From a virus, in the UHGV virus genome UHGV-0141068: a DNA stretch of 28,359 nucleotides; one strand, written 5' to 3'. Shown in pieces: positions 10,033-28,248 of this stretch. The position numbers and the translations under genes are program-made. Below the pieces are notes generated by a model. It saw only the letters and a list, made by a program, of their open reading frames with translations, was not told the origin of the DNA and did no database searches. Position 1 is the stretch's first letter. Each line of letters begins with the position of its first letter.

Positions 10033-10067
10033 TTATATCCCCTCTTTGGTGCACGCTTACAATGCGT

Positions 10068-10091
10068 AAAAAAGCCTCGCATTAGCGAGGC
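10068..10091 (-). terminator. rho-independent terminator
   Basis: GCCTCGC-ATTA-GCGAGGC hairpin followed on minus strand by U6; separates lysis and packaging modules. Confidence 0.6.
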
Positions 10092-10198
10092 TCGTTTATA
10101 TCTTGAAGGTGAATACTTATTGTCTTATCTATCCACGGGAAACATTAAGATTATTACACCCGTTAGTTGGGAAATAAAACAAAATGCAGGTGGTTTAT

Positions 10199-10423
10199 TT
10201 ATTCTTTGCTGATTGCTTTCTGAATGGCATCGGCTAATGGTTCAATTAAGCCAATAGCTGCTTTTAATTCCTGTTCAAATTTTGCACTTGTAGCCTGACC
10301 ACCTGCAGAAGAAAGTGAGGCCTTAACTAATTCAAGGGCAGCTTGAACAGCTATAACCCTCTGTTTTTGAGCTTGAGTTACAGGCTGAGCACCTATTCCT
10401 GAAGGGAAATAATTCTCTAACAT
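10199..10423 (-). CDS. hypothetical helical protein
   Basis: 74-aa ORF with GGAGG RBS, lower GC than flanking genes, no signal peptide. Confidence 0.4.
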   Translation of the reverse strand: MLENYFPSGIGAQPVTQAQKQRVIAVQAALELVKASLSSAGGQATSAKFEQELKAAIGLIEPLADAIQKAISKE

Positions 10424-10690
10424 TACAACCTCCGTATTAAAAAGTGAGGTTACACATTACCCTTAAGATTACTCTTAGTGAAGAGGTATCTCATAATTAT
10501 CACCCTTACCAATAACGCTTGATGAAATTTGTAATGGACTGGCTCTTATTTCAACGCAACCACTTACCGCGCGCCAGATGCTTAACCTCAAACATTAGCA
10601 ATGAGATGTTTAATCTGAATCCACTCCAGAAGTAATCACCACTCTGTCTACAGGGCCTGATGTGAAGGATGATGAGTAAAATTATCGCTA

Positions 10691-11152
10691 TCATCGAAGG
10701 CATTGCGTCCTGATGTACTCCTGCAGGTAGTTAACCTGTGCGGTTATCCTGTCGATTCCACTTCGGAGACGGTAATAATTGAGTTCAGCATCTGCTGTAA
10801 GTCCTGGGCTTTCTCCATCGCCCATGCCGCTGGCTCTGGTCGTTGATTTTGCACAGGTGGCGGCGACTTGCAGGCGCTTACGCCCAGAAGAAACATCAGC
10901 ACGGAGACTTTCGATAGTCGCGTTAGCATCAGCAAGCTCCTTTGTGTATCTGGCGTCAAGTTCTGCTACGTCACGTTGACGCTTCTGCATATCAGAGATA
11001 GTCGCCATAGCCGAATCTAATGCCATAGCATTCTCATCACGCTGCTTTTTGTATTCGATGGCTTTGCTGTGGTAATAATTTGCTGAACAGATAAAAGAAC
11101 CAATGACAGTAACGAAGAATGCAGCGATAACCAGCTTATAGCTCAACTTCAT
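10691..11152 (-). CDS. Rz: i-spanin Rz
   Basis: 153 aa with N-terminal TM segment then coiled-coil periplasmic domain; overlaps endolysin stop. Confidence 0.85.
   Translation of the reverse strand: MKLSYKLVIAAFFVTVIGSFICSANYYHSKAIEYKKQRDENAMALDSAMATISDMQKRQRDVAELDARYTKELADANATIESLRADVSSGRKRLQVAATCAKSTTRASGMGDGESPGLTADAELNYYRLRSGIDRITAQVNYLQEYIRTQCLR
10744..10929 (-). CDS. Rz1: o-spanin Rz1 lipoprotein, embedded in Rz
   Basis: +1-frame ORF inside Rz; signal peptide with lipobox (LLGVSAC) and proline-rich mature part; start taken at internal Met. Confidence 0.7.
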   Translation of the reverse strand: MLTRLSKVSVLMFLLGVSACKSPPPVQNQRPEPAAWAMEKAQDLQQMLNSIITVSEVESTG

Positions 11153-11612
11153 TTACCACCCCGCCAGCCTCTTTGAATCGGGCAATCAGGTCACCGATTT
11201 TATGTTCATACTGACCGTAACCAGCGCCCGGCAGTGAAGCCCAGATATTGCTGCAACGATCGATAGCCTGACGAATATCGCCGCGATCAATCATCGGTAA
11301 AGCGCCACGCTCTTTAATCTGCTGCAATGCCACAGCATCCTGGCTTTTTGGAGAGAAGTCTTTCAGCCCAAGCTGCTTGCGGTAAGCATCCCACCAGCGT
11401 GAAAGAAGTTGATAACGGCCTGCAGCTGTTGATTTGAGTTTGGGGTTTAGCGTGACAAGTTTGCGAGGGTGATCGGAGTAATCAGTGAAGAGTTCACCAC
11501 CGACAATAATATCATAACCGTGGTTACGTGTCGGTTGTCGCCCGTTATCCGTTCCTTCTGACCATGCCACCATATCGAGGAAAGCTTTACGCTGAGGATT
11601 AAGATTTTGCAT
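11136..11612 (-). CDS. R: lambda R-type endolysin (lytic transglycosylase)
   Basis: 158 aa; NQRKAFLDM.AWSEGTDNGRQ.TRNHGYDVIVGGELFTDYSDHPRK region matches lambda R as recalled. Confidence 0.9.
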   Translation of the reverse strand: MQNLNPQRKAFLDMVAWSEGTDNGRQPTRNHGYDIIVGGELFTDYSDHPRKLVTLNPKLKSTAAGRYQLLSRWWDAYRKQLGLKDFSPKSQDAVALQQIKERGALPMIDRGDIRQAIDRCSNIWASLPGAGYGQYEHKIGDLIARFKEAGGVVNEVEL

Positions 11613-12003
11613 TTTTCACCCCTGTCAGTCGTTCCCAGAAGTACGTCAGTGCAACCGAACCCATCGCACCACTAATCCCCGCTGTCGCGAGAATCATGTA
11701 AATACTGAATCCACTTTCGATGCTGATCAGGCCACCAATAACACCGGTGAATCCTGATACCACTATCTGAGCCAGAGCATTTATCCAACACCACGTTGCT
11801 TTACTCTGCTTCACATCTATCAGGTAGCGGACCAGACCGCCCCAACCTGCGATGATCAGCAAAACGAGCCAGAACGCTCCAGCAAGATTCTCTTTTTCGT
11901 GCATATGAATAGCCGCAGTTTCGCCTCCGACAGAAAATCGGAGCGTGAAATGATATGTTGATTTATTATTAATTCGAAAATTACATTCTAATTCATCAGG
12001 CAT
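11599..12003 (-). CDS. putative holin (start codon uncertain)
   Basis: Three hydrophobic helices immediately upstream of and overlapping the endolysin gene; N-terminal 33 codons are AT-rich and lack an RBS, so real start may be Met at 11904. Confidence 0.55.
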   Translation of the reverse strand: MPDELECNFRINNKSTYHFTLRFSVGGETAAIHMHEKENLAGAFWLVLLIIAGWGGLVRYLIDVKQSKATWCWINALAQIVVSGFTGVIGGLISIESGFSIYMILATAGISGAMGSVALTYFWERLTGVKNAKS

Positions 12004-12021
12004 TGATGATTTTATAATAAT

Positions 12022-12044
12022 AAAGGCCGTTCGTTACGGCCTTT
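12022..12044. terminator. hairpin with flanking A/T runs (possible bidirectional terminator)
   Basis: AAAGGCCG-TTCGTTA-CGGCCTTT between the acidic moron gene and the holin ORF. Confidence 0.45.
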
Positions 12045-12055
12045 ATTATTGATAT

Positions 12056-12391
12056 TTATTTTACATCCCAAGGTAGTTCCTCAAGAGAGAAGACTAATTC
12101 ATTATCAATGATTTCGTATTCTGCATAACCTTCAACCTCTCCTGAGAAGTTATTGTCAACGCATCCTTCATAATAGCTATATGGTGCTATAAAGTGAAAC
12201 CCATATTCATCTATCTCTGTGATTTCAAAATTGTAGTAATCGTAAGAATATCGAATATCATCATCAGAAATAGAACTAAGTACATAGTTATTAAATTTAT
12301 CGGAATGCTTAACGATAAGCTCTGACAACGCGTCAAGATTCTCTGGAGAGATATTTCCTAACGGTAATCTGTACTCAACGGCATTAATCAT
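12056..12391 (-). CDS. highly acidic Tyr-rich hypothetical protein (moron between Q and holin)
   Basis: 111 aa, about 24 Asp/Glu versus 5 Lys/Arg, 12 Tyr; strong RBS AAGGAGG; AT-rich; first gene downstream of tR'. Confidence 0.55.
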   Translation of the reverse strand: MINAVEYRLPLGNISPENLDALSELIVKHSDKFNNYVLSSISDDDIRYSYDYYNFEITEIDEYGFHFIAPYSYYEGCVDNNFSGEVEGYAEYEIIDNELVFSLEELPWDVK

Positions 12392-12443
12392 ACAACCTCC
12401 TTTTTAACTGATATGAGGTTATATAATGTGTTTCAGTACAAGT

Positions 12444-12470
12444 AAATAAAAACCCGCTCAACAGCGGGTT
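12444..12470 (-). terminator. tR'-like terminator of the late leader
   Basis: AACCCGCT-CAAC-AGCGGGTT hairpin followed on minus strand by UUUUUAUUU. Confidence 0.65.
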
Positions 12471-12516
12471 CGTGAAAATTATCAACGGCAGACATACAAA
12501 GCCCATCGTTGAGAAA

Positions 12517-12545
12517 ATCTTATCCATATTTTTTGAAAAATGCAA
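12517..12545 (-). promoter_or_regulatory. PR'-like late promoter
   Basis: Minus-strand TTGCAT (-35, 12545..12540), 17-bp spacer, TAAGAT (-10, 12522..12517), located between Q stop and the tR' hairpin. Confidence 0.5.
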
Positions 12546-19187: not shown

Positions 19188-19862
19188 ATGAAAACAATCC
19201 ATGACATCCGGCGGTCTAACGCCAGAAAACTGAGAGATGGTGTTGGCGGGAATTCTTCCTTTGCCACTATGATTGATCGCGAGCCAACCCAGACCAGCAG
19301 GTTTATGGGAGATGGTGCTACTAAAAATATCGGTGACAGCATGGCACGACACATCGAAAAATGTTTCGACCTGCCTGTCGGATGGCTCGATCAAGAACAC
19401 CAGACAACGAACATCACAAAAAAACCTGATGTTTCAATCACTAATAAACAAATCACATTAGTCCCTGTCATATCATGGGTACAGGCCGGAGCATGGAAAG
19501 AAGTTGGATATTCTGAGGTTGATTTGAGCACAGCAGAAACGTATCCCTGCCCTGTCCCCTGTGGGGAAATGACTTATATCTTGCGGGTGATAGGTGATTC
19601 AATGATTGATGAGTACCGCCCGGGAGACATGATTTTTGTCGATCCTGAAGTACCTGCCTGCCACGGTGACGACGTTATTGCATTGATGCACGATACAGGT
19701 GAAACCACCTTCAAAAGGTTGATAGAAGATGGGACACAGCGTTATCTCAAAGCGTTAAACCCAAACTGGCCTGAGCCTTACATTAAGATCAACGGTAATT
19801 GCTCTATAATTGGTACAGTGATTTTCTCAGGAAAACCAAGAAGATACAAAATCAAAGCCTAA
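19188..19862 (+). CDS. CI-type prophage repressor with LexA/S24-like autocleavage domain
   Basis: 224 aa; C-terminal half (ISWVQAGAW, GDSM, FKRL, LNPNWP) is the S24 peptidase fold shared with lambda CI; no SD upstream, consistent with leaderless translation. Confidence 0.85.
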   Translation: MKTIHDIRRSNARKLRDGVGGNSSFATMIDREPTQTSRFMGDGATKNIGDSMARHIEKCFDLPVGWLDQEHQTTNITKKPDVSITNKQITLVPVISWVQAGAWKEVGYSEVDLSTAETYPCPVPCGEMTYILRVIGDSMIDEYRPGDMIFVDPEVPACHGDDVIALMHDTGETTFKRLIEDGTQRYLKALNPNWPEPYIKINGNCSIIGTVIFSGKPRRYKIKA

Positions 19863-20351: not shown

Positions 20352-20948
20352 ATGGATTGGCATGACCTTATATCAAAGGTAATTATCGGACTTGTTACAG
20401 GCTCAATCGCAGCTTACTTAACTGCGCGATATGCACTCGGCCGTTATTATAAAGAAAAATGGTGGGACAAAAGAATAGATTTGTATACGCAATTAGTTGA
20501 CTGTGTTTATCTTCTAAAAAACACAGCTGACTATTGGTATAAACATGAGTTACATCACGCTTCACAATTCCCAACCTACTTTAGTTACAAATCAAAAGAA
20601 GAAAATGAAATCCTTAGCAAATCTTTCTCTAATGAGCTTGAAAAACTCAGTAGAATAGGTGAGCTATCTTCATTATTCTTAACAGAAGAGTGTGGGGATA
20701 AAATCCGTTCATTCATTGAAAATGAAGAAAATCTATTTATACAATGGGAGTTTGATAGTATAGAGTTGATAGATGCCCACAAGTCAAGACTTGATAAATT
20801 AAAAGTATTACTAGACGATATTATCTCTGAAGCAAAGAGAGAGCTTAAGGTCAATAAAAAACATAACAGCCTAAAGAATATAAAGTGGTCCATAACTATG
20901 CCAGACCAAAAAAATGATGAGCCAATTAATTATTACGACAATCATTAA
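20352..20948 (+). CDS. membrane-anchored hypothetical protein (moron in early-left region)
   Basis: 198 aa, single N-terminal hydrophobic helix (VIIGLVTGSIAAYLTARYALG) then charged helical domain; markedly AT-rich; own terminator. Confidence 0.6.
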   Translation: MDWHDLISKVIIGLVTGSIAAYLTARYALGRYYKEKWWDKRIDLYTQLVDCVYLLKNTADYWYKHELHHASQFPTYFSYKSKEENEILSKSFSNELEKLSRIGELSSLFLTEECGDKIRSFIENEENLFIQWEFDSIELIDAHKSRLDKLKVLLDDIISEAKRELKVNKKHNSLKNIKWSITMPDQKNDEPINYYDNH

Positions 20949-22565: not shown

Positions 22566-22915
22566 TGGAACCATACAGCCTCACGCTAGATGAGGCCTGT
22601 CATTTTCTCAAGATATCCAGACCGACTGCCATTAACTGGATACGCACAGGGCGTCTGCAGGCAACACGCAAAGATCCCACTAAGAATAAATCTCCTTACC
22701 TCACAACACGACAAGCCTGCATTGCGGCGCTTCAGTCTCCGCTGCATACTGTCCAGGTGAGCGCGGGTGATGGCATAACAGAGGAAAGAAAATGTCACTC
22801 TTCCGCAGAGGTGAAATATGGTACGCCAGTTTCACATTGCCGAACGGTAAAAGATTTAAACAGTCTCTTGGAACAAAGGACAAAAGGCAGGCGACAGAAC
22901 TCCATGACAAGCTAA
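22565..22915 (+). CDS. xis: excisionase (P22 Xis-like, AlpA-type HTH)
   Basis: 116 aa from ATG 22565; [36 protein letters not shown]; 3' end overlaps integrase start. Confidence 0.8.
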
Positions 22916-23955
22916 AGGCTGAAGCATGGCGGGTCAGCAAACTTGGTGAAATTCCTGATATAACGTTCGAGGAAGCGTGTGTCAGGTGGCTTGAAGAGAA
23001 AGCACATAAAAAATCACTGGACGATGACAAAAGCCGGATCGGATTCTGGCTTCAACATTTCGCAGGAATGCAACTAAGAGACATTACTGAATCAAAAATT
23101 TATTCAGCAATGCAGAAAATGACGAACCGGCGTCATGAGGAAAACTGGAAACTCAGGGCAGAAGCATGCAGAAAAAAAGGGAAACCTGTTCCAGAATACA
23201 CGCCAAAACCAGCGTCCGTTGCAACGAAGGCTACGCATCTTTCATTTATAAAGGCCCTGCTAAGAGCCGCAGAGCGTGAATGGAAAATGCTGGATAAGGC
23301 ACCAATTATTAAAGTGCCTCAACCAAAGAATAAACGGATCCGCTGGCTGGAGCCTCATGAAGCACAAAGGCTGATTGATGAATGTCCGGAGCCATTAAAG
23401 TCTGTTGTTGAATTTGCACTTGCAACAGGCTTAAGACGCTCGAACATCATCAACCTTGAATGGCAACAAATAGACATGCAGCGCCGGGTGGCATGGATAA
23501 ACCCGGAAGAGAGTAAATCAAACCGCGCAATTGGCGTTGCGCTGAATGATACTGCATGTCGCGTATTGAAAAAACAAATCGGGAATCATCACCGTTGGGT
23601 ATTTGTGTATAAGGAAAGCTGTACCAAACCAGACGGAACGAAAGCGCCAACAGTCAGGAAGATGCGGTATGACGCAAACATAGCCTGGAAAGCGGCGCTG
23701 AGACGAGCAGGTATTGATGATTTCAGATTTCACGACTTGAGACACACCTGGGCAAGTTGGCTGGTTCAAGCCGGAGTCCCGTTATCAGTGTTACAGGAAA
23801 TGGGAGGCTGGGAGTCTATCGAAATGGTTCGTCGATATGCTCACCTCGCACCTAATCACCTTACCGAACACGCACGGCAAATAGACTCGATTCTGAACCC
23901 ATCGGTCCCAAATTTGTCCCAGTCAAGAAATAAGGAAGGTACTAATGATGTGTAA
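22792..23955 (+). CDS. int: tyrosine integrase, P22-type
   Basis: 387 aa; [15 protein letters not shown]-terminus and C-terminal R...HxxR...Y catalytic region (HDLRHTWAS...MVRRYAHL); adjacent to tRNA-Thr-derived att core. Confidence 0.9.
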
Positions 23956-23969
23956 CTTATTGATTTAAA

Positions 23970-24021
23970 TGGTGCCGATAATAGGAGTCGAACCTACGAC
24001 CTTCGCATTACGAATGCGAAG
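23970..24021 (-). other. attachment-site core: 3' fragment of a tRNA-Thr(CGU) gene (not a complete tRNA)
   Basis: Reverse complement reads anticodon stem-loop (TCGCA-TTCGTAA-TGCGA, anticodon CGT), T-arm GGTTCGACTCC and acceptor 3' strand ending CCA; no D-arm or 5' acceptor strand upstream. Confidence 0.75.
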
Positions 24022-24103
24022 TTTTTATATTTTAACTGCTTGAACAACCATCAGAAATCACAAATTTATCATTTTAAATCATAATATTAAAACAAAAAAC
24101 CTG

Positions 24104-24129
24104 TTGATGTAAATTGATGAGTGTTGATG
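24104..24129 (+). repeat. three TTGATG direct repeats at 10-bp phasing upstream of integrase
   Basis: TTGATG at 24104, 24114, 24124; further TTGAT/ATCAA copies at 25508-25537 just after the integrase stop. Confidence 0.5.
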
Positions 24130-24201
24130 TTTATCCTTTCAATTTACTTACACCAGCCGTTACATTACTGTAAACCGTAATCCCCAACAGGAACCCTAAA
24201 A

Positions 24202-25521
24202 ATGGCGCTTTCAAGACAAAAACTAACCTTCGAACGAATTCGAAGATTTACTTTACCTGAAGGGAAAAACCAAGTTTTCCTTTGGGATACGGACGTAACA
24301 AGCTTGGCATGTCGAGCAACTCGTGGAGCAAAAGCCTTTGTATTCCAAAGCCTGTATGCGGGAAAAACCCTTCGCATGACCATTGGCAACATTAACGATT
24401 GGAGGATTGATGATGCGAGGGCCGAAGCCAGGCGACTGCAAACATTAATCGATACTGGGATAGATCCGCGTATAGCTAAGGCGGAAAAAATTGCTGAAGC
24501 GGAATCACAGCAGGCTGAATCTCGTAAAACGAAGGCAACCTTTTCAAGCGCTTGGGAAGATTATCTTGATGAATTGAGAACCGGAATCAGCGCAAAAACT
24601 AAACGCCCCTACTCTGCACGCTACATTGCCGATCACGTTAACTTGTCCAGTCGTGGAGGCGAAAGTAAAAAAAGAGGCCGGGGCCCAACCTCACCTGGGC
24701 CACTGGCTAGCCTGCTCGACCGACCATTATCAGAACTAACACCAGAGAACATTGCCGAATGGCTAAGTACAGAGAGACAAAATCGGCCTACCGTCACTGC
24801 TCATGCCTACCGTCTGTTGCGTGCATTCATCAAATGGGCTAATTACCAGAAAAAATATCAGGGAATAATCGATGGCGATCTTGCACAAGATCATAACGTG
24901 AGAAAAATGGTTCCAATATCAGCGAGCAAAGCGGGAGATTGCTTACAAAAAGAACAGCTCAAAAGCTGGTTCAGTGCCGTGCGTAGCCTCAATAATCCCA
25001 TTGCATCAGCCTATCTCCAAGTGCTTTTGCTCACCGGTGCACGGCGTGAAGAAATTTCCTCACTTCGCTGGTCTGACATAGATTTCAAATGGTCAAGCAT
25101 GAGAATTAAAGACAAGATCGAAGGCGAGCGAATTATCCCCCTCACTCCCTATGTTTCTGACTTGTTACGCTCACTGATGGAGATCCCCAATCGTGGTACA
25201 AACGAGGAGAATTGGGTTTTCAGAAGTAACAGCAAAAGTGGCAAAATTATTGAACCGCGTTCAGCACATAATAGAGCATTAACTCGCGCGGAGTTACCAC
25301 ATATCAGCTTGCACGGATTGCGCCGTAGTTTTGGGACCCTCGCTGAATGGGTCGAAGTACCAACAGGTATTGTTGCGCAGATTATGGGCCATAAGCCTAG
25401 CGCTCTTGCTGAAAAGCACTATCGCCGCCGTCCATTAGATTTGCTAAGAAAATGGCATGAAAAAGTTGAATTATGGATCTTAGAAGAAGCAAAAATAAAA
25501 AACAACGTTGATAAGCGTTGA
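24202..25521 (+). CDS. tyrosine integrase, P4 type
   Basis: 439 aa; N-terminal arm-binding-like region, C-terminal catalytic R..HGLRRS..Y region (LHGLRRSFGT, HY near the end). Confidence 0.85.
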   Translation: MALSRQKLTFERIRRFTLPEGKNQVFLWDTDVTSLACRATRGAKAFVFQSLYAGKTLRMTIGNINDWRIDDARAEARRLQTLIDTGIDPRIAKAEKIAEAESQQAESRKTKATFSSAWEDYLDELRTGISAKTKRPYSARYIADHVNLSSRGGESKKRGRGPTSPGPLASLLDRPLSELTPENIAEWLSTERQNRPTVTAHAYRLLRAFIKWANYQKKYQGIIDGDLAQDHNVRKMVPISASKAGDCLQKEQLKSWFSAVRSLNNPIASAYLQVLLLTGARREEISSLRWSDIDFKWSSMRIKDKIEGERIIPLTPYVSDLLRSLMEIPNRGTNEENWVFRSNSKSGKIIEPRSAHNRALTRAELPHISLHGLRRSFGTLAEWVEVPTGIVAQIMGHKPSALAEKHYRRRPLDLLRKWHEKVELWILEEAKIKNNVDKR

Positions 25522-25635
25522 TTTTATCAAATATCAACAACTTACATAAAATCACATGTGTTGACAGAAATTTTTTTTCAGTTATCTTTTATTACTGCTA
25601 ACTACATTCACTCACTAAGCAGGAGATTAACTACA

Positions 25636-26061
25636 GTGACTAACCCAATAACTGTATCAAGAGAAGACCGAAGTGCGGAAATCAGAGCGAGATGGGGTTT
25701 ACATCCGACTAAAAACAAAAGTTCTAATTTTTGGGAAACAACAATTCAGCGTTTTAATAATAGTAGTACTGACCGAATACTACCTCTTTGGCACCGTGTT
25801 TCAAAACTTTTAGTTGCTATTAGGAATGTAGTCAATACTATAACATGCCTTTTTCCACCAAAGGGGAATACTTCCCGCTCACGCCGAAGTTCAACAACGT
25901 CATCAAAAAACTCATCATCATCTTCATCGGATGGTAGTAGTAGCGACCCCGATCCCGATAGAGACCCCATATTCACCCCTTTTCATTTCATTCTTTCATC
26001 TCTGTTAAAAACAATGATCGTCTTATTTGCCCACATATCAAATGTTGGGGTGATGAAATGA
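25636..26061 (+). CDS. Ser-rich hypothetical protein with hydrophobic C-terminus
   Basis: GTG at 25636 with AGGAG RBS 10 nt upstream; low-complexity S/D stretch; stop overlaps AlpA-like start; candidate -35 TTGACA at 25561. Confidence 0.35.
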   Translation: MTNPITVSREDRSAEIRARWGLHPTKNKSSNFWETTIQRFNNSSTDRILPLWHRVSKLLVAIRNVVNTITCLFPPKGNTSRSRRSSTTSSKNSSSSSSDGSSSDPDPDRDPIFTPFHFILSSLLKTMIVLFAHISNVGVMK

Positions 26062-26279
26062 GCGATATCAAACATCAAAAACCCTCTCAGTCACAACTAA
26101 TTTCTACCCGCGAGTTAGCTAATATTATTGGCTATGAAGTACAAACTATTCGAGCTTGGCTTTGCAAAGACAAACTGCCTAATGGTTTACCGCGACCGAA
26201 GAAAATTAAAAACCGACACTATTGGTCACGTAAAGACATTGATAGATACCTATTAACCTTCTCAGTATATAGTAACTAA
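26058..26279 (+). CDS. AlpA-family HTH regulator / excisionase-like
   Basis: 73 aa; LISTRELANIIGYEVQTIRAWLCKDKLP HTH typical of AlpA/Vis-type proteins. Confidence 0.7.
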   Translation: MSDIKHQKPSQSQLISTRELANIIGYEVQTIRAWLCKDKLPNGLPRPKKIKNRHYWSRKDIDRYLLTFSVYSN

Positions 26280-26290
26280 TAGAGGCCTCC

Positions 26291-26316
26291 CCCGGCTATT
26301 CTAAAGAATAGCCGGG
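26291..26316 (+). other. perfect 11-bp palindrome (terminator-like hairpin or operator)
   Basis: CCCGGCTATTC-TAAA-GAATAGCCGGG between AlpA-like and RHH-protein genes; weak T-tract. Confidence 0.5.
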
Positions 26317-26401
26317 TTAGTTAATACAAACCTTCCATTAACAATGGGGGGAGATTAATACTATTTATCACATCTCACATTAACAAAATTCAAGGTCACA
26401 T

Positions 26402-27166
26402 ATGAAAAAACGCATCACTTTCAGCGTAAACAATAGTTCTACTATTGATGCAATTGACGACTATAGCAATGCAAAAGGATACTCCAGGTCAGAGGTGATA
26501 TCATTTTTATTAAACGCCACAGTCCCAGCATTGAATAAAATAACATCGCAATATCATATAGCTCAAACTTTGGAGTCAACATTAGGCTGTATTTTTGAAG
26601 AGAAGGTCCCGTCAATAGCACGGGGGGAGCCAAAATTAACTTACGAAGAGTTTTTTCATTCCGTCTGGAACACTCACATTCGACACCGGAACGAGGTTGT
26701 CGATCAAGATTTTTATGCGCACAAAATACCTCATGATAAGATGGGTAAGAGCGAAAAAAAATTAATTCATGAAAAGCTCTCATACATTATAAAAAGTTTC
26801 AATGTAAAAAAAGCAATTTTTATTTACACAGATCGGCGCGTGAACCACAAACATCTCATTGCAGGAGGGTTATCTAATATCATACTGATAAAGGAAACAG
26901 TCTACGATGGTTGTTTTTTTGATTTGAGCAGCATTGTGATTATGCCAATCTTTGAACTTATTACATTTGGAGTTGAAGCAGTATTGAAAAGAAATAAAAC
27001 TCCCCCTAAACAATCATGCTATTGCTGGATACCAATTTATTACACAAATGATCTAGCGGTAATGGTCCCTGTGATTGCCGAAGGCGATACACCTCAAAAG
27101 GCGATGAAAGGAGGAGATGCCATCATTATTAACCCCTTTAACGGTGAAGTAAGCCATACTTTCTGA
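26402..27166 (+). CDS. RHH-domain fusion protein of unknown function
   Basis: 254 aa; N-terminus (KKRITFSVNNSSTIDAIDDYSNAKGYSRSEVISFLL) looks like a ribbon-helix-helix; about 200-aa C-terminal domain unrecognised; AT-rich. Confidence 0.55.
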   Translation: MKKRITFSVNNSSTIDAIDDYSNAKGYSRSEVISFLLNATVPALNKITSQYHIAQTLESTLGCIFEEKVPSIARGEPKLTYEEFFHSVWNTHIRHRNEVVDQDFYAHKIPHDKMGKSEKKLIHEKLSYIIKSFNVKKAIFIYTDRRVNHKHLIAGGLSNIILIKETVYDGCFFDLSSIVIMPIFELITFGVEAVLKRNKTPPKQSCYCWIPIYYTNDLAVMVPVIAEGDTPQKAMKGGDAIIINPFNGEVSHTF

Positions 27167-27248
27167 TACCAATGTTAAGCATAACCACTTAGTTGCATAC
27201 ATCTCGACAGTATGGAGTTAGTACCTAATAGCTTGATGAGGGTAAAAG

Positions 27249-27425
27249 ATGCCTACTAACAAAGCAAAATCAAAGAAAATTCTAGGAAGGCCTGAAGGAA
27301 GTAAATATTCCCATTTAATTCAGAGTGAGAAGGCTAAGCATTACTCTCAATCCAAGGTGGCAAAGATCTTAGGAATAAGTATTTCCACGGTAAAAAGACA
27401 CTGGGATAACGGCATCTTTGGGTGA
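27249..27425 (+). CDS. small HTH protein
   Basis: 58-aa ORF below ORF-track cutoff; GAGGG RBS 7 nt upstream; SKVAKILGISISTVKRHW helix-turn-helix. Confidence 0.45.
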   Translation: MPTNKAKSKKILGRPEGSKYSHLIQSEKAKHYSQSKVAKILGISISTVKRHWDNGIFG

Positions 27426-27627
27426 TTATAATTGCAGAGTTGCTTTTTAATTATTTTACTGCATGGGTAATGGGTTGATAACAAGTTTTATTGTTGGAAA
27501 GGTATTATATAACAGTCATTACTATTAATAGTTAATTAATATAACTAACCACAGACATTCAGCTATGTCTGATCATATTACTATATACGGCTATCCAAAG
27601 CCGTAGGGCTAACGACAGGATCGAAAC

Positions 27628-28248
27628 ATGGAATTATATCATGGTTCCCATGGTGAGCATGTGCTCGCCTATAAAAAACATATTGAACGAGTCGTCAATG
27701 ATGCTATCAGTGAATTCCCCAGAACAATGGCGTTACGTGTTGATGTTCATTATCCACCCATTTTAGACAGAGGTGACACTGTTTGCTGTTTTCCTAATCT
27801 AGAGCCTGGTGCCATATCCCGTTTCCGTAATGCATTAAATGCCATGTTGGAGGCCAATGAGAGAACCAGAGCAGCTAACGGCAAAAGAATATATCCAAAC
27901 CGTGTTCGTCATGTTTGGGCACGGGAGTTTTCCGAAGAAGGAAAATGTCACTTTCACCTTGGTCTTTTTTTTAACAAAGATGCTTATTACCATTTAGGTG
28001 ATTATGAGGCTGAAAGAAATTTAAGGATGATGATTGTAAGAGCATGGTATAGCGCACTGGGATTGGAACTGGATGATTATCCGGGATTGGTTCACTACCC
28101 TGAAAATTGTCGTTATATTTTAGACGTCAATGATTTTAACTTTGAAGGAGAATACAATAAATTACTGAATCGTCTCGACTACCTAGCTAAACTCGATACA
28201 AAAGCATATGGAGATGGCGACCGTAGCTTCGGCTGCAGTCGCGGGTAA
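27628..28248 (+). CDS. YagK/YfjJ-family protein
   Basis: 206 aa; family typical of CP4-type cryptic elements, assigned from memory of conserved regions. Confidence 0.55.
   Translation: MELYHGSHGEHVLAYKKHIERVVNDAISEFPRTMALRVDVHYPPILDRGDTVCCFPNLEPGAISRFRNALNAMLEANERTRAANGKRIYPNRVRHVWAREFSEEGKCHFHLGLFFNKDAYYHLGDYEAERNLRMMIVRAWYSALGLELDDYPGLVHYPENCRYILDVNDFNFEGEYNKLLNRLDYLAKLDTKAYGDGDRSFGCSRG

Follow-up and report, generated by a model that had tools for sequence, protein, structure and literature searches.

In lambdoid phages, the slot between the antiterminator gene Q and the lysis genes holds the most consequential cargo that these phages carry, including Shiga toxin (Stx), whose gene stx occupies it in Stx phages. 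The subject of the present work is a small, strongly acidic gene found in this slot in UHGV-0141068, a virus genome of 28,359 nucleotides that was analyzed over its whole length and is referred to below as the window. In the Qin prophage of Escherichia coli K-12, the slot is preceded by the YdfU-YdfT(Q) module that the window also has, and the cargo there is cspB/cspF. Phage SfV, on the other hand, carries orf47 and orf48 (encoding an N6/N4 DNA methyltransferase) in the slot, where they follow the same Q and tR' exactly as the acidic gene does and lie between two annotated terminators; the window carries the acidic gene instead of this orf47/methyltransferase pair, and the proteins are unrelated. 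The short pR'-tR' arrangement of the window matches the layout described for Stx phages (PMC7547250). Cargo genes that travel as a unit of promoter, gene, and terminator have been termed morons (Juhala et al. 2000, as cited in PMC7067206), and, as in lambdoid morons, the acidic gene is an optional, compositionally foreign insert between conserved modules, with a terminator of its own and a promoter-like element.

Our analyses suggest that a lambdoid (SfV/Qin-like) E. coli prophage carries this gene as a single-gene moron, inserted where the late operon begins, and that the gene product may act as a polyanionic decoy or inhibitor, a combined statement to which we assign a probability of about 40%. 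It is very probable that the gene is a selected, mobile single-gene cargo at the late-operon head; the proposed mode of action, taken on its own, is offered tentatively.

The Acidic Gene and Its Carriers

The open reading frame (ORF) encodes a protein of 111 amino acids (aa) and 13.0 kDa with 24 Asp or Glu, 5 Lys or Arg, and 12 Tyr residues, an isoelectric point (pI) of 4.05, and a net charge of -19. A first-pass annotation made from the letters of the window had given a length of 111 aa, about 24 acidic and 5 basic residues, and 12 Tyr, all of which were reproduced exactly on recounting; it had also placed the gene between the tR' hairpin and the holin gene, which is confirmed, and had noted a strong ribosome-binding site, which proved to be AGGAGG at 12401-12396, and a high AT content, in line with the 33.9% GC of the ORF versus 49.1% for the whole window. 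The motif GGAGGTT is kept in the orthologous loci of Salmonella and Citrobacter. Among the 35 genes of the window, the acidic gene encodes the product with the highest negative charge per residue (-0.171, the runner-up being at -0.091) and the highest Tyr content (10.8%), and it ties for the lowest GC content. No hydrophobic or transmembrane segment was found in the protein, the highest Kyte-Doolittle mean over 19 residues being 0.59, and the product is a soluble, cytoplasmic protein of 13 kDa.

The prophage region matches a prophage in the chromosome of E. coli ECONIH4 at 100% identity and combines a Qin/SfV-like regulatory arm (RusA, KilA-N, DUF968/YdfU, and a YdfT-type Q) with a myovirus-type morphogenesis arm. 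Of 5,426 complete E. coli genomes, 131 (~2.4%) carry the cassette in full, and records of the identical protein exist for at least 1000 contigs, unnamed in every case.

A Protein Family under Purifying Selection

A word-indexed search across 5.8 billion proteins returned close relatives only, from Salmonella (72% identity) and Citrobacter (69%), and an exhaustive HMMER pass across 1.84 billion representatives added ~24 further proteins of 106-118 aa at 26-45% identity. Two profile searches found more members in Enterobacter, Klebsiella, Duffyella, Erwinia, and a second E. coli clade, giving ~50 diverged homologues overall, of conserved length and with invariant motifs, which appear to make up a small family restricted to the Enterobacterales. 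Two kinds of apparent relatives were discarded, namely the large proteins P0019 (2661 aa) and P0029 (435 aa), which are repeat-driven false positives, and the chimeric 134-aa cluster P0005, an assembly artefact that has only the N-terminal half in common with the family. The family alignments show invariant residues at F33, D45, R47, Y48, G76, C77, and W108 and the motifs YF-x-GC-x-D-x-N and LDET-x-W. The window protein matches phrog_13663, a cluster of unknown function, over its full length (E 9e-54), and all family members match this PHROG, no other PHROG, and are annotated as hypothetical. The acidity is a property of the whole family (pI 4.05-4.74 and net charge -9 to -22, mean -15, in all 43 members examined), as is the base composition (34-41% GC in all members' genes). 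The Tyr excess, on the other hand, is confined to the E. coli clade, with 12 residues versus a family mean of 6.5.

Pairwise ratios of nonsynonymous to synonymous substitution rates (dN/dS) within the family are 0.10-0.28, and a comparison of the E. coli copy with that of Salmonella shows saturation at synonymous sites; it follows from this purifying selection that the ORF is translated and selected, and it is a real gene. A spurious ORF, or a neutral hitchhiker in AT-rich filler DNA, would agree with the base composition, with the lack of an annotated function, and with the absence of the gene from sequenced phage isolates (three diverged members gave no tblastn match in 50,697 phage genomes), but this explanation is effectively excluded by conservation: the low dN/dS, the number of diverged homologues with their constant length and invariant motifs, the strong ribosome-binding site, the confident structural model described below, and the large number of contigs carrying the exact protein all stand against it.

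The first-pass annotation had recognized no family for the protein, and database searches bear this out. Pfam gave sub-threshold noise only (NIR_SIR_ferr, E 0.016), NCBIfam gave no match, the PADLOC defence hidden Markov models returned 0 families at E <= 1 for the three family members tested, and sequence searches of the PDB with 4- and 25-sequence profiles returned nothing below E 0.1. Literature searches on the accession, the PHROG identifier, and the topic retrieved nothing specific to the acidic protein. The same annotation had named two outcomes that would overturn its view of the gene, homology to a structural or housekeeping protein and an untranslated ORF; no such homology was found, and purifying selection argues for translation.

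A Single-Gene Cassette

Phages SfV and 720R4 share the Q of the window but carry different cargo and lack the acidic gene; their homology to the window stops at 12448 and 12437, respectively, and homology to DLP12-like prophages, which have the same holin and an empty slot, stops at 11935-11952. Because homology breaks on both sides, the insert can be delimited to ~0.5 kb of DNA at 32% GC that holds the acidic gene alone. The second of these breaks also bears on the holin: since homology to the empty-slot prophages stops where it does, the holin gene most likely starts at 11904 and not at 12003. A longer holin ORF (11599-12003, 134 aa) was rejected, its first ~33 codons being cassette DNA and the RefSeq start lying at 11904. 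The coordinates of these features are collected in Table 1.

Table 1. Coordinates of the acidic gene, its cassette, and the flanking regulatory and lysis features in the window
Feature	Position	Strand	Details
Acidic-protein coding sequence	12056..12391	-	111 aa, read 12391->12056, ATG ... TAA; PHROG 13663 family; identical to WP_000606308.1 'hypothetical protein'
Shine-Dalgarno AGGAGG	12396..12401	-	4 nt 5' of ATG; read from sequence
Cargo cassette	11937..12448	-	~485-512 bp, 32% GC; homology breaks on both sides
Strong hairpin, bidirectional terminator type	12015..12051	.	15-bp stem, dG -20.2 kcal/mol, z -7.5; 0/200 shuffles as stable
Candidate sigma-70 promoter	12418..12446	-	-35 TTTACT (12446-12441), 17-nt spacer, -10 TATAAC (12423-12418); 9/12 consensus
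tR'-type intrinsic terminator after Q	12450..12471	-	9-bp stem (5 GC) + U-run; dG -14.9 kcal/mol, z -4.5
Candidate pR' late promoter TTGCAT-17-TAAGAT	12517..12545	-	5' of conserved AACGATGGGCTTTGTATG leader; 7/12 consensus
Q antiterminator, YdfT-like, PF03589	12577..13329	-	Pfam E 4e-54; phrog_127 E 5e-109
Holin, LydA-type, PF16083	11599..11904	-	Pfam + PHROG matches; RefSeq 101-aa model; heads lysis cassette

The anatomy of the insert is that of a moron. It is missing from the same position in close relatives (SfV, 720R4, and DLP12-like prophages), its base composition is distinct (32% GC for the cassette and 34% for the ORF in a window of 49%), and it has its own predicted downstream terminator, the hairpin at 12015-12051. 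Under strict criteria, a GC hairpin followed by a T-run is found 15-50 nt past the stop codon in at least 15 of 21 loci. Rfam and tRNA scans detected no RNA gene within the cassette. The view taken in the first-pass annotation, that this is a moron locus, is thus well supported, in the form of an optional AT-rich cargo in the Q-to-holin slot.

Position in the Q-to-Lysis Slot

On the minus strand of the window, the order is Q, a hairpin with a U-run, the acidic ORF, a second hairpin, the holin, a GH24 endolysin, and Rz. The first hairpin, the tR' terminator, is homologous to an annotated terminator of phage SfV. The place of the candidate pR' after Q, together with the similarity of its leader to those of loci L025 and L028, which have the same Q type, points to this element as the probable late promoter.

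The surroundings of the gene were surveyed in ~36 independent loci, comprising nine groups of genome or metagenome loci and 26 IMG/VR proviruses, the neighbours in the latter being classed by BLAST against Pfam-annotated references. The family gene is co-oriented with its neighbours, downstream of Q and upstream of the lysis cassette, in all loci but one, including 26 of 26 IMG/VR proviruses; the sole exception is a decayed prophage of Erwinia tracheiphila. Neighbourhood conservation, which had been put forward as a check on the gene, therefore extends across several unrelated Q and holin families. The Q partners belong to PF03589, PF06530 (long and short forms), PF06323, and one 204-aa type that has no Pfam family; the holins to five Pfam families (PF16083, PF16931 with PF05449, PF04971, and PF16080); and the endolysins to GH24, GH19, GH108, or Phage_lysozyme. 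Because its Q, holin, and endolysin partners are this diverse, the family is tied to the slot and not to one neighbour, and position is its most constant property. A search for a conserved partner gene turned up none; the divergent neighbours of 289 aa in Citrobacter and of 293 aa in Erwinia are mutually unrelated. In seven loci, the family gene lies beside an SfV-orf47-like ORF and an N6/N4 DNA methyltransferase gene, on either side of the latter.

Cytoplasmic lysis-timing factors have precedents in T4 RIII and P1 LydB, and the acidic protein, made just before the holin, could in principle be an antiholin or holin modulator binding to the holin's charged cytoplasmic tail; the gene does lie upstream of the lysis cassette in the same orientation, and an acidic protein could bind basic holin tails. 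The evidence on partners makes such a role very unlikely, however. The family is combined with five unrelated Pfam holin families, ~880 E. coli genomes use the same holin (with one residue different) and lack the acidic gene, a terminator separates the gene from the holin, and in several loci a methyltransferase or other cargo intervenes before the holin. Searches for the hallmarks of an antiholin found no co-variation with any one holin family, no membrane or signal-anchor-release domain, and no gene overlap or translational coupling. In addition, the E. tracheiphila copy survives where no lysis genes are left.

This E. tracheiphila copy (L016-L018) is an intact member at the edge of a decayed prophage remnant riddled with insertion sequences, beside a gene for a GbpA-like lytic polysaccharide monooxygenase; of the usual surroundings only a Q fragment is left, ~4.8 kb upstream. 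It may reflect either domestication or neutral retention.

The slot itself is a multi-cargo hotspot. For example, in two Citrobacter loci (L014, 2476-4030, and L038, 1461-3015) the 289-aa protein, encoded on the opposite strand, matches the PADLOC candidate defence family PDC-S42 (E 1.6e-31), and the same slots also contain a pair of small hydrophobic ORFs together with an SfV-orf47-like ORF and a gene for an N6/N4 methyltransferase. The tR' hairpin (AACCCGC...GCGGGTTTTT) is near-identical behind Q genes of different families, at 12450-12471 in the window and in loci L002, L007, L012, and L024, and may provide the common homology that lets cargo cassettes recombine into the slot.

Expression of the Cassette

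Lying 3' of Q, pR', and tR' in the late orientation, the acidic gene would be the first to be transcribed by Q-modified RNA polymerase after induction, and late, Q-dependent transcription can be deduced from this position. In two of the three clades, a promoter-like footprint after tR', together with the private terminator, could moreover allow expression in the lysogen separately from the lysis genes. In the window and its orthologues, the blocks TTTTTATTTAC and TATATAACC are invariant across the E. coli, Salmonella, and Citrobacter loci, in which the spacer and the synonymous sites have diverged, and the candidate -10 lies in cassette-specific DNA. In the 110-aa clade, an A-tract followed by TTGACA (or CTGACA/TTGGCA), 15-16 nt, and TAnnnT is invariant in 12 loci that differ in their terminators and flanks. 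Lysogenic transcription from the candidate promoter is plausible on this pattern of conservation, but several observations weigh against it. Position -7 of the window candidate is a C, so that a stricter scanner rejects it; the spacer is short in the 110-aa clade; the -35 overlaps a terminator tail common to phages that lack the gene (720R4); no promoter-like element was found in the third clade (L044-L047); and the region has no more promoter-like sites than expected from shuffled sequence.

Predicted Structure and Possible Function

AlphaFold models of the protein reached a mean predicted local distance difference test score (pLDDT) of 74 with four sequences and of 86, with a predicted template modelling score (pTM) of 0.78, with 25 sequences. 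The predicted topology consists of beta1, two helices, and a five-strand antiparallel meander, and Foldseek searches of this model against the PDB and BFVD returned nothing at E <= 0.001. The protein is thus modelled as a cystatin/NTF2-like alpha+beta roll that has no identifiable relative; the known folds closest to it are the cystatin, NTF2-like, and VirB8-like roll superfolds. Column statistics show acidic residues conserved at alternating positions of beta5 (85, 87, 91, 93, and 95) and beta6 (102 and 104). From the secondary structure, these would be exposed on the same side of the sheet, and the hydrophobic residues that alternate with them would be turned toward the helices; strand topology suggests that the invariant residues D45/R47/Y48, G76-C77-x-D79, and D104-E105-x-x-W108 converge as a polar patch at one pole of the sheet.

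Cones of the NTF2/cystatin-like type often bind small ligands, and the polar patch (D45, R47, Y48, C77, D79, E105, and W108) could accordingly be read as the site of a small enzyme or of a ligand or second-messenger binder in which acidity is secondary. The modelled fold class and the predicted clustering of seven invariant residues at one end of the sheet are in keeping with this, but the family has no invariant His, no recognizable catalytic motif, and no family match, 110 aa is small for an enzyme, and a protein of such negative charge is unlikely to bind anionic nucleotides; we consider this role improbable.

A polyanionic decoy or inhibitor is favored because the protein is soluble, has no enzymatic domain, combines a conserved acidic pattern with a polar patch, carries an Ocr-like charge, and occupies a slot that holds conflict-related cargo elsewhere, namely the orphan N6/N4 DNA methyltransferase and the PDC-S42 candidate defence gene. 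The strong negative charge and low pI are those of a DNA mimic, and the family-wide acidity at alternating beta5 and beta6 positions fits the suggestion, already made from composition in the first-pass annotation, of a DNA-mimic, immunity, or inhibitor protein. The product would bind stoichiometrically, presenting a nucleic acid-like polyanion to the basic, nucleic acid-binding surface of a host or competitor protein, which might be a nuclease, a restriction enzyme, or an abortive-infection effector. A more specific version is that the family constitutes new prophage polyanionic inhibitors, made as the first late gene product and in most clades also in the lysogen, which would neutralize a host immune nuclease or abortive-infection sensor otherwise triggered when the structural or packaging proteins of the late phase and free ends of DNA appear. 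Both the neutralizing role and this trigger are speculative, and we regard them as unlikely in this specific form.

The acidic protein might instead protect the lysogen, as an orphan immunity or antidote protein against a basic toxin (a bacteriocin, a contact-dependent inhibition toxin, or a type VI secretion nuclease) or against a prophage-borne effector, with a gain in lysogen fitness. Many nuclease immunity proteins are likewise small, acidic, and cytoplasmic, the promoter-gene-terminator anatomy suits expression in the lysogen, the intact copy kept in the E. tracheiphila remnant is recorded on 41 contigs, and some carrier prophages encode bacteriocins. On the other hand, no Pfam immunity family matches the protein, and there is no consistently adjacent or cognate toxin gene, the window neighbours being Q and the holin and the 289-aa and 293-aa upstream neighbours in other carriers being unrelated to one another. 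Furthermore, one clade has no promoter-like element, and the bacteriocins of the carriers are either accompanied by a dedicated immunity gene or of the pore-forming type, whose immunity proteins are membrane proteins. Taken together, these points make an immunity function rather doubtful.

Two such carrier prophages were noted. In Klebsiella aerogenes (L052, 1-1997), an S-pyocin/cloacin-type toxin gene is accompanied by a cloacin immunity gene, and in Citrobacter (L007, 2181-3275), the carrier prophage encodes a protein with a pore-forming colicin domain.

Other Features of the Prophage

Another accessory slot seems to be present at 10050-10650, a second AT-rich stretch (~39% GC) that is flanked by Rz and the HNH/terminase genes and contains two ORFs, one of 74 aa (10199-10423, minus strand; phrog_5901, unknown function, no Pfam match) and one of 50 aa. 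Within Rz (10691-11152) and out of frame with it, an ORF at 10744-10959 on the minus strand, missing from the RefSeq annotation, has a lipoprotein-box-like LLGVSAC and is likely the Rz1 o-spanin. At 20352-20948 on the plus strand, a 198-aa ORF of 33% GC, which has no Pfam match and adjoins an S24/LexA-like repressor gene (19188-19862), is a moron-like gene in an immunity-region slot. Toward the end of the window, the prophage integrase gene (22792-23955) is followed by an Rfam tRNA-like match (23973-24045, minus strand) that was not called by ARAGORN, and beyond it by a P4-type integrase gene (24202-25521) and a YfjJ/YagK-family gene (27628-28248). The region 22792-28248 thus has the appearance of a tandem pair of mobile elements that share a single tRNA attachment site.

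Comparison with Known Systems

These data define a family that is conserved, fairly common in the Q-to-lysis slot, and of no known function, and that is carried by E. coli, Salmonella, Citrobacter, Enterobacter, Klebsiella, Duffyella, and Erwinia. What is new is an uncharacterized protein family as moron cargo; the logic of the locus is known and will not surprise phage biologists. The family is tractable, with clear boundaries, a confident model, invariant residues, and natural comparators that have the same Q or the same holin and lack the gene. If the product is a decoy or inhibitor, it would bring a new fold and the logic of first-late-gene expression to phage counter-defence or lysogenic conversion; if it neutralizes an immune nuclease or sensor, it would represent a new anti-defence mechanism of temperate Enterobacterales phages and a new fold for nucleic acid mimicry; and if it has no measurable effect, it is one more conserved prophage ORFan.

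Like other morons of the slot, the gene would by position be under Q-dependent late transcription, but its product shows no relationship to Stx, Csp, Bor, Lom, or any characterized moron product. Because each homology test was negative, the protein stands outside the known DNA-mimic, anti-restriction, immunity, defence, and antiholin families: no homology or structural match to known mimic or immunity families was found, and Ocr, ArdA, and anti-restriction families gave no Pfam, NCBIfam, or PDB match and were absent from the top fold matches. The window protein differs in several respects from DNA mimics (T7 Ocr, ArdA, Ugi, and HI1450/DMP-type proteins). It has no sequence or fold relationship to them, Ocr and ArdA are helical whereas its own predicted fold is a beta-rich roll, and its gene lies in the late and not in the early region. 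The likeness to these mimics, on the other hand, is one of size (~110 aa), of carriage by phages, and of charge, the ratio of acidic to basic residues being 24:5 here compared with 34:6 in Ocr, a DNA mimic of 116 aa (PMC3439906), and in the window family this acidity is conserved and concentrated in two strands.
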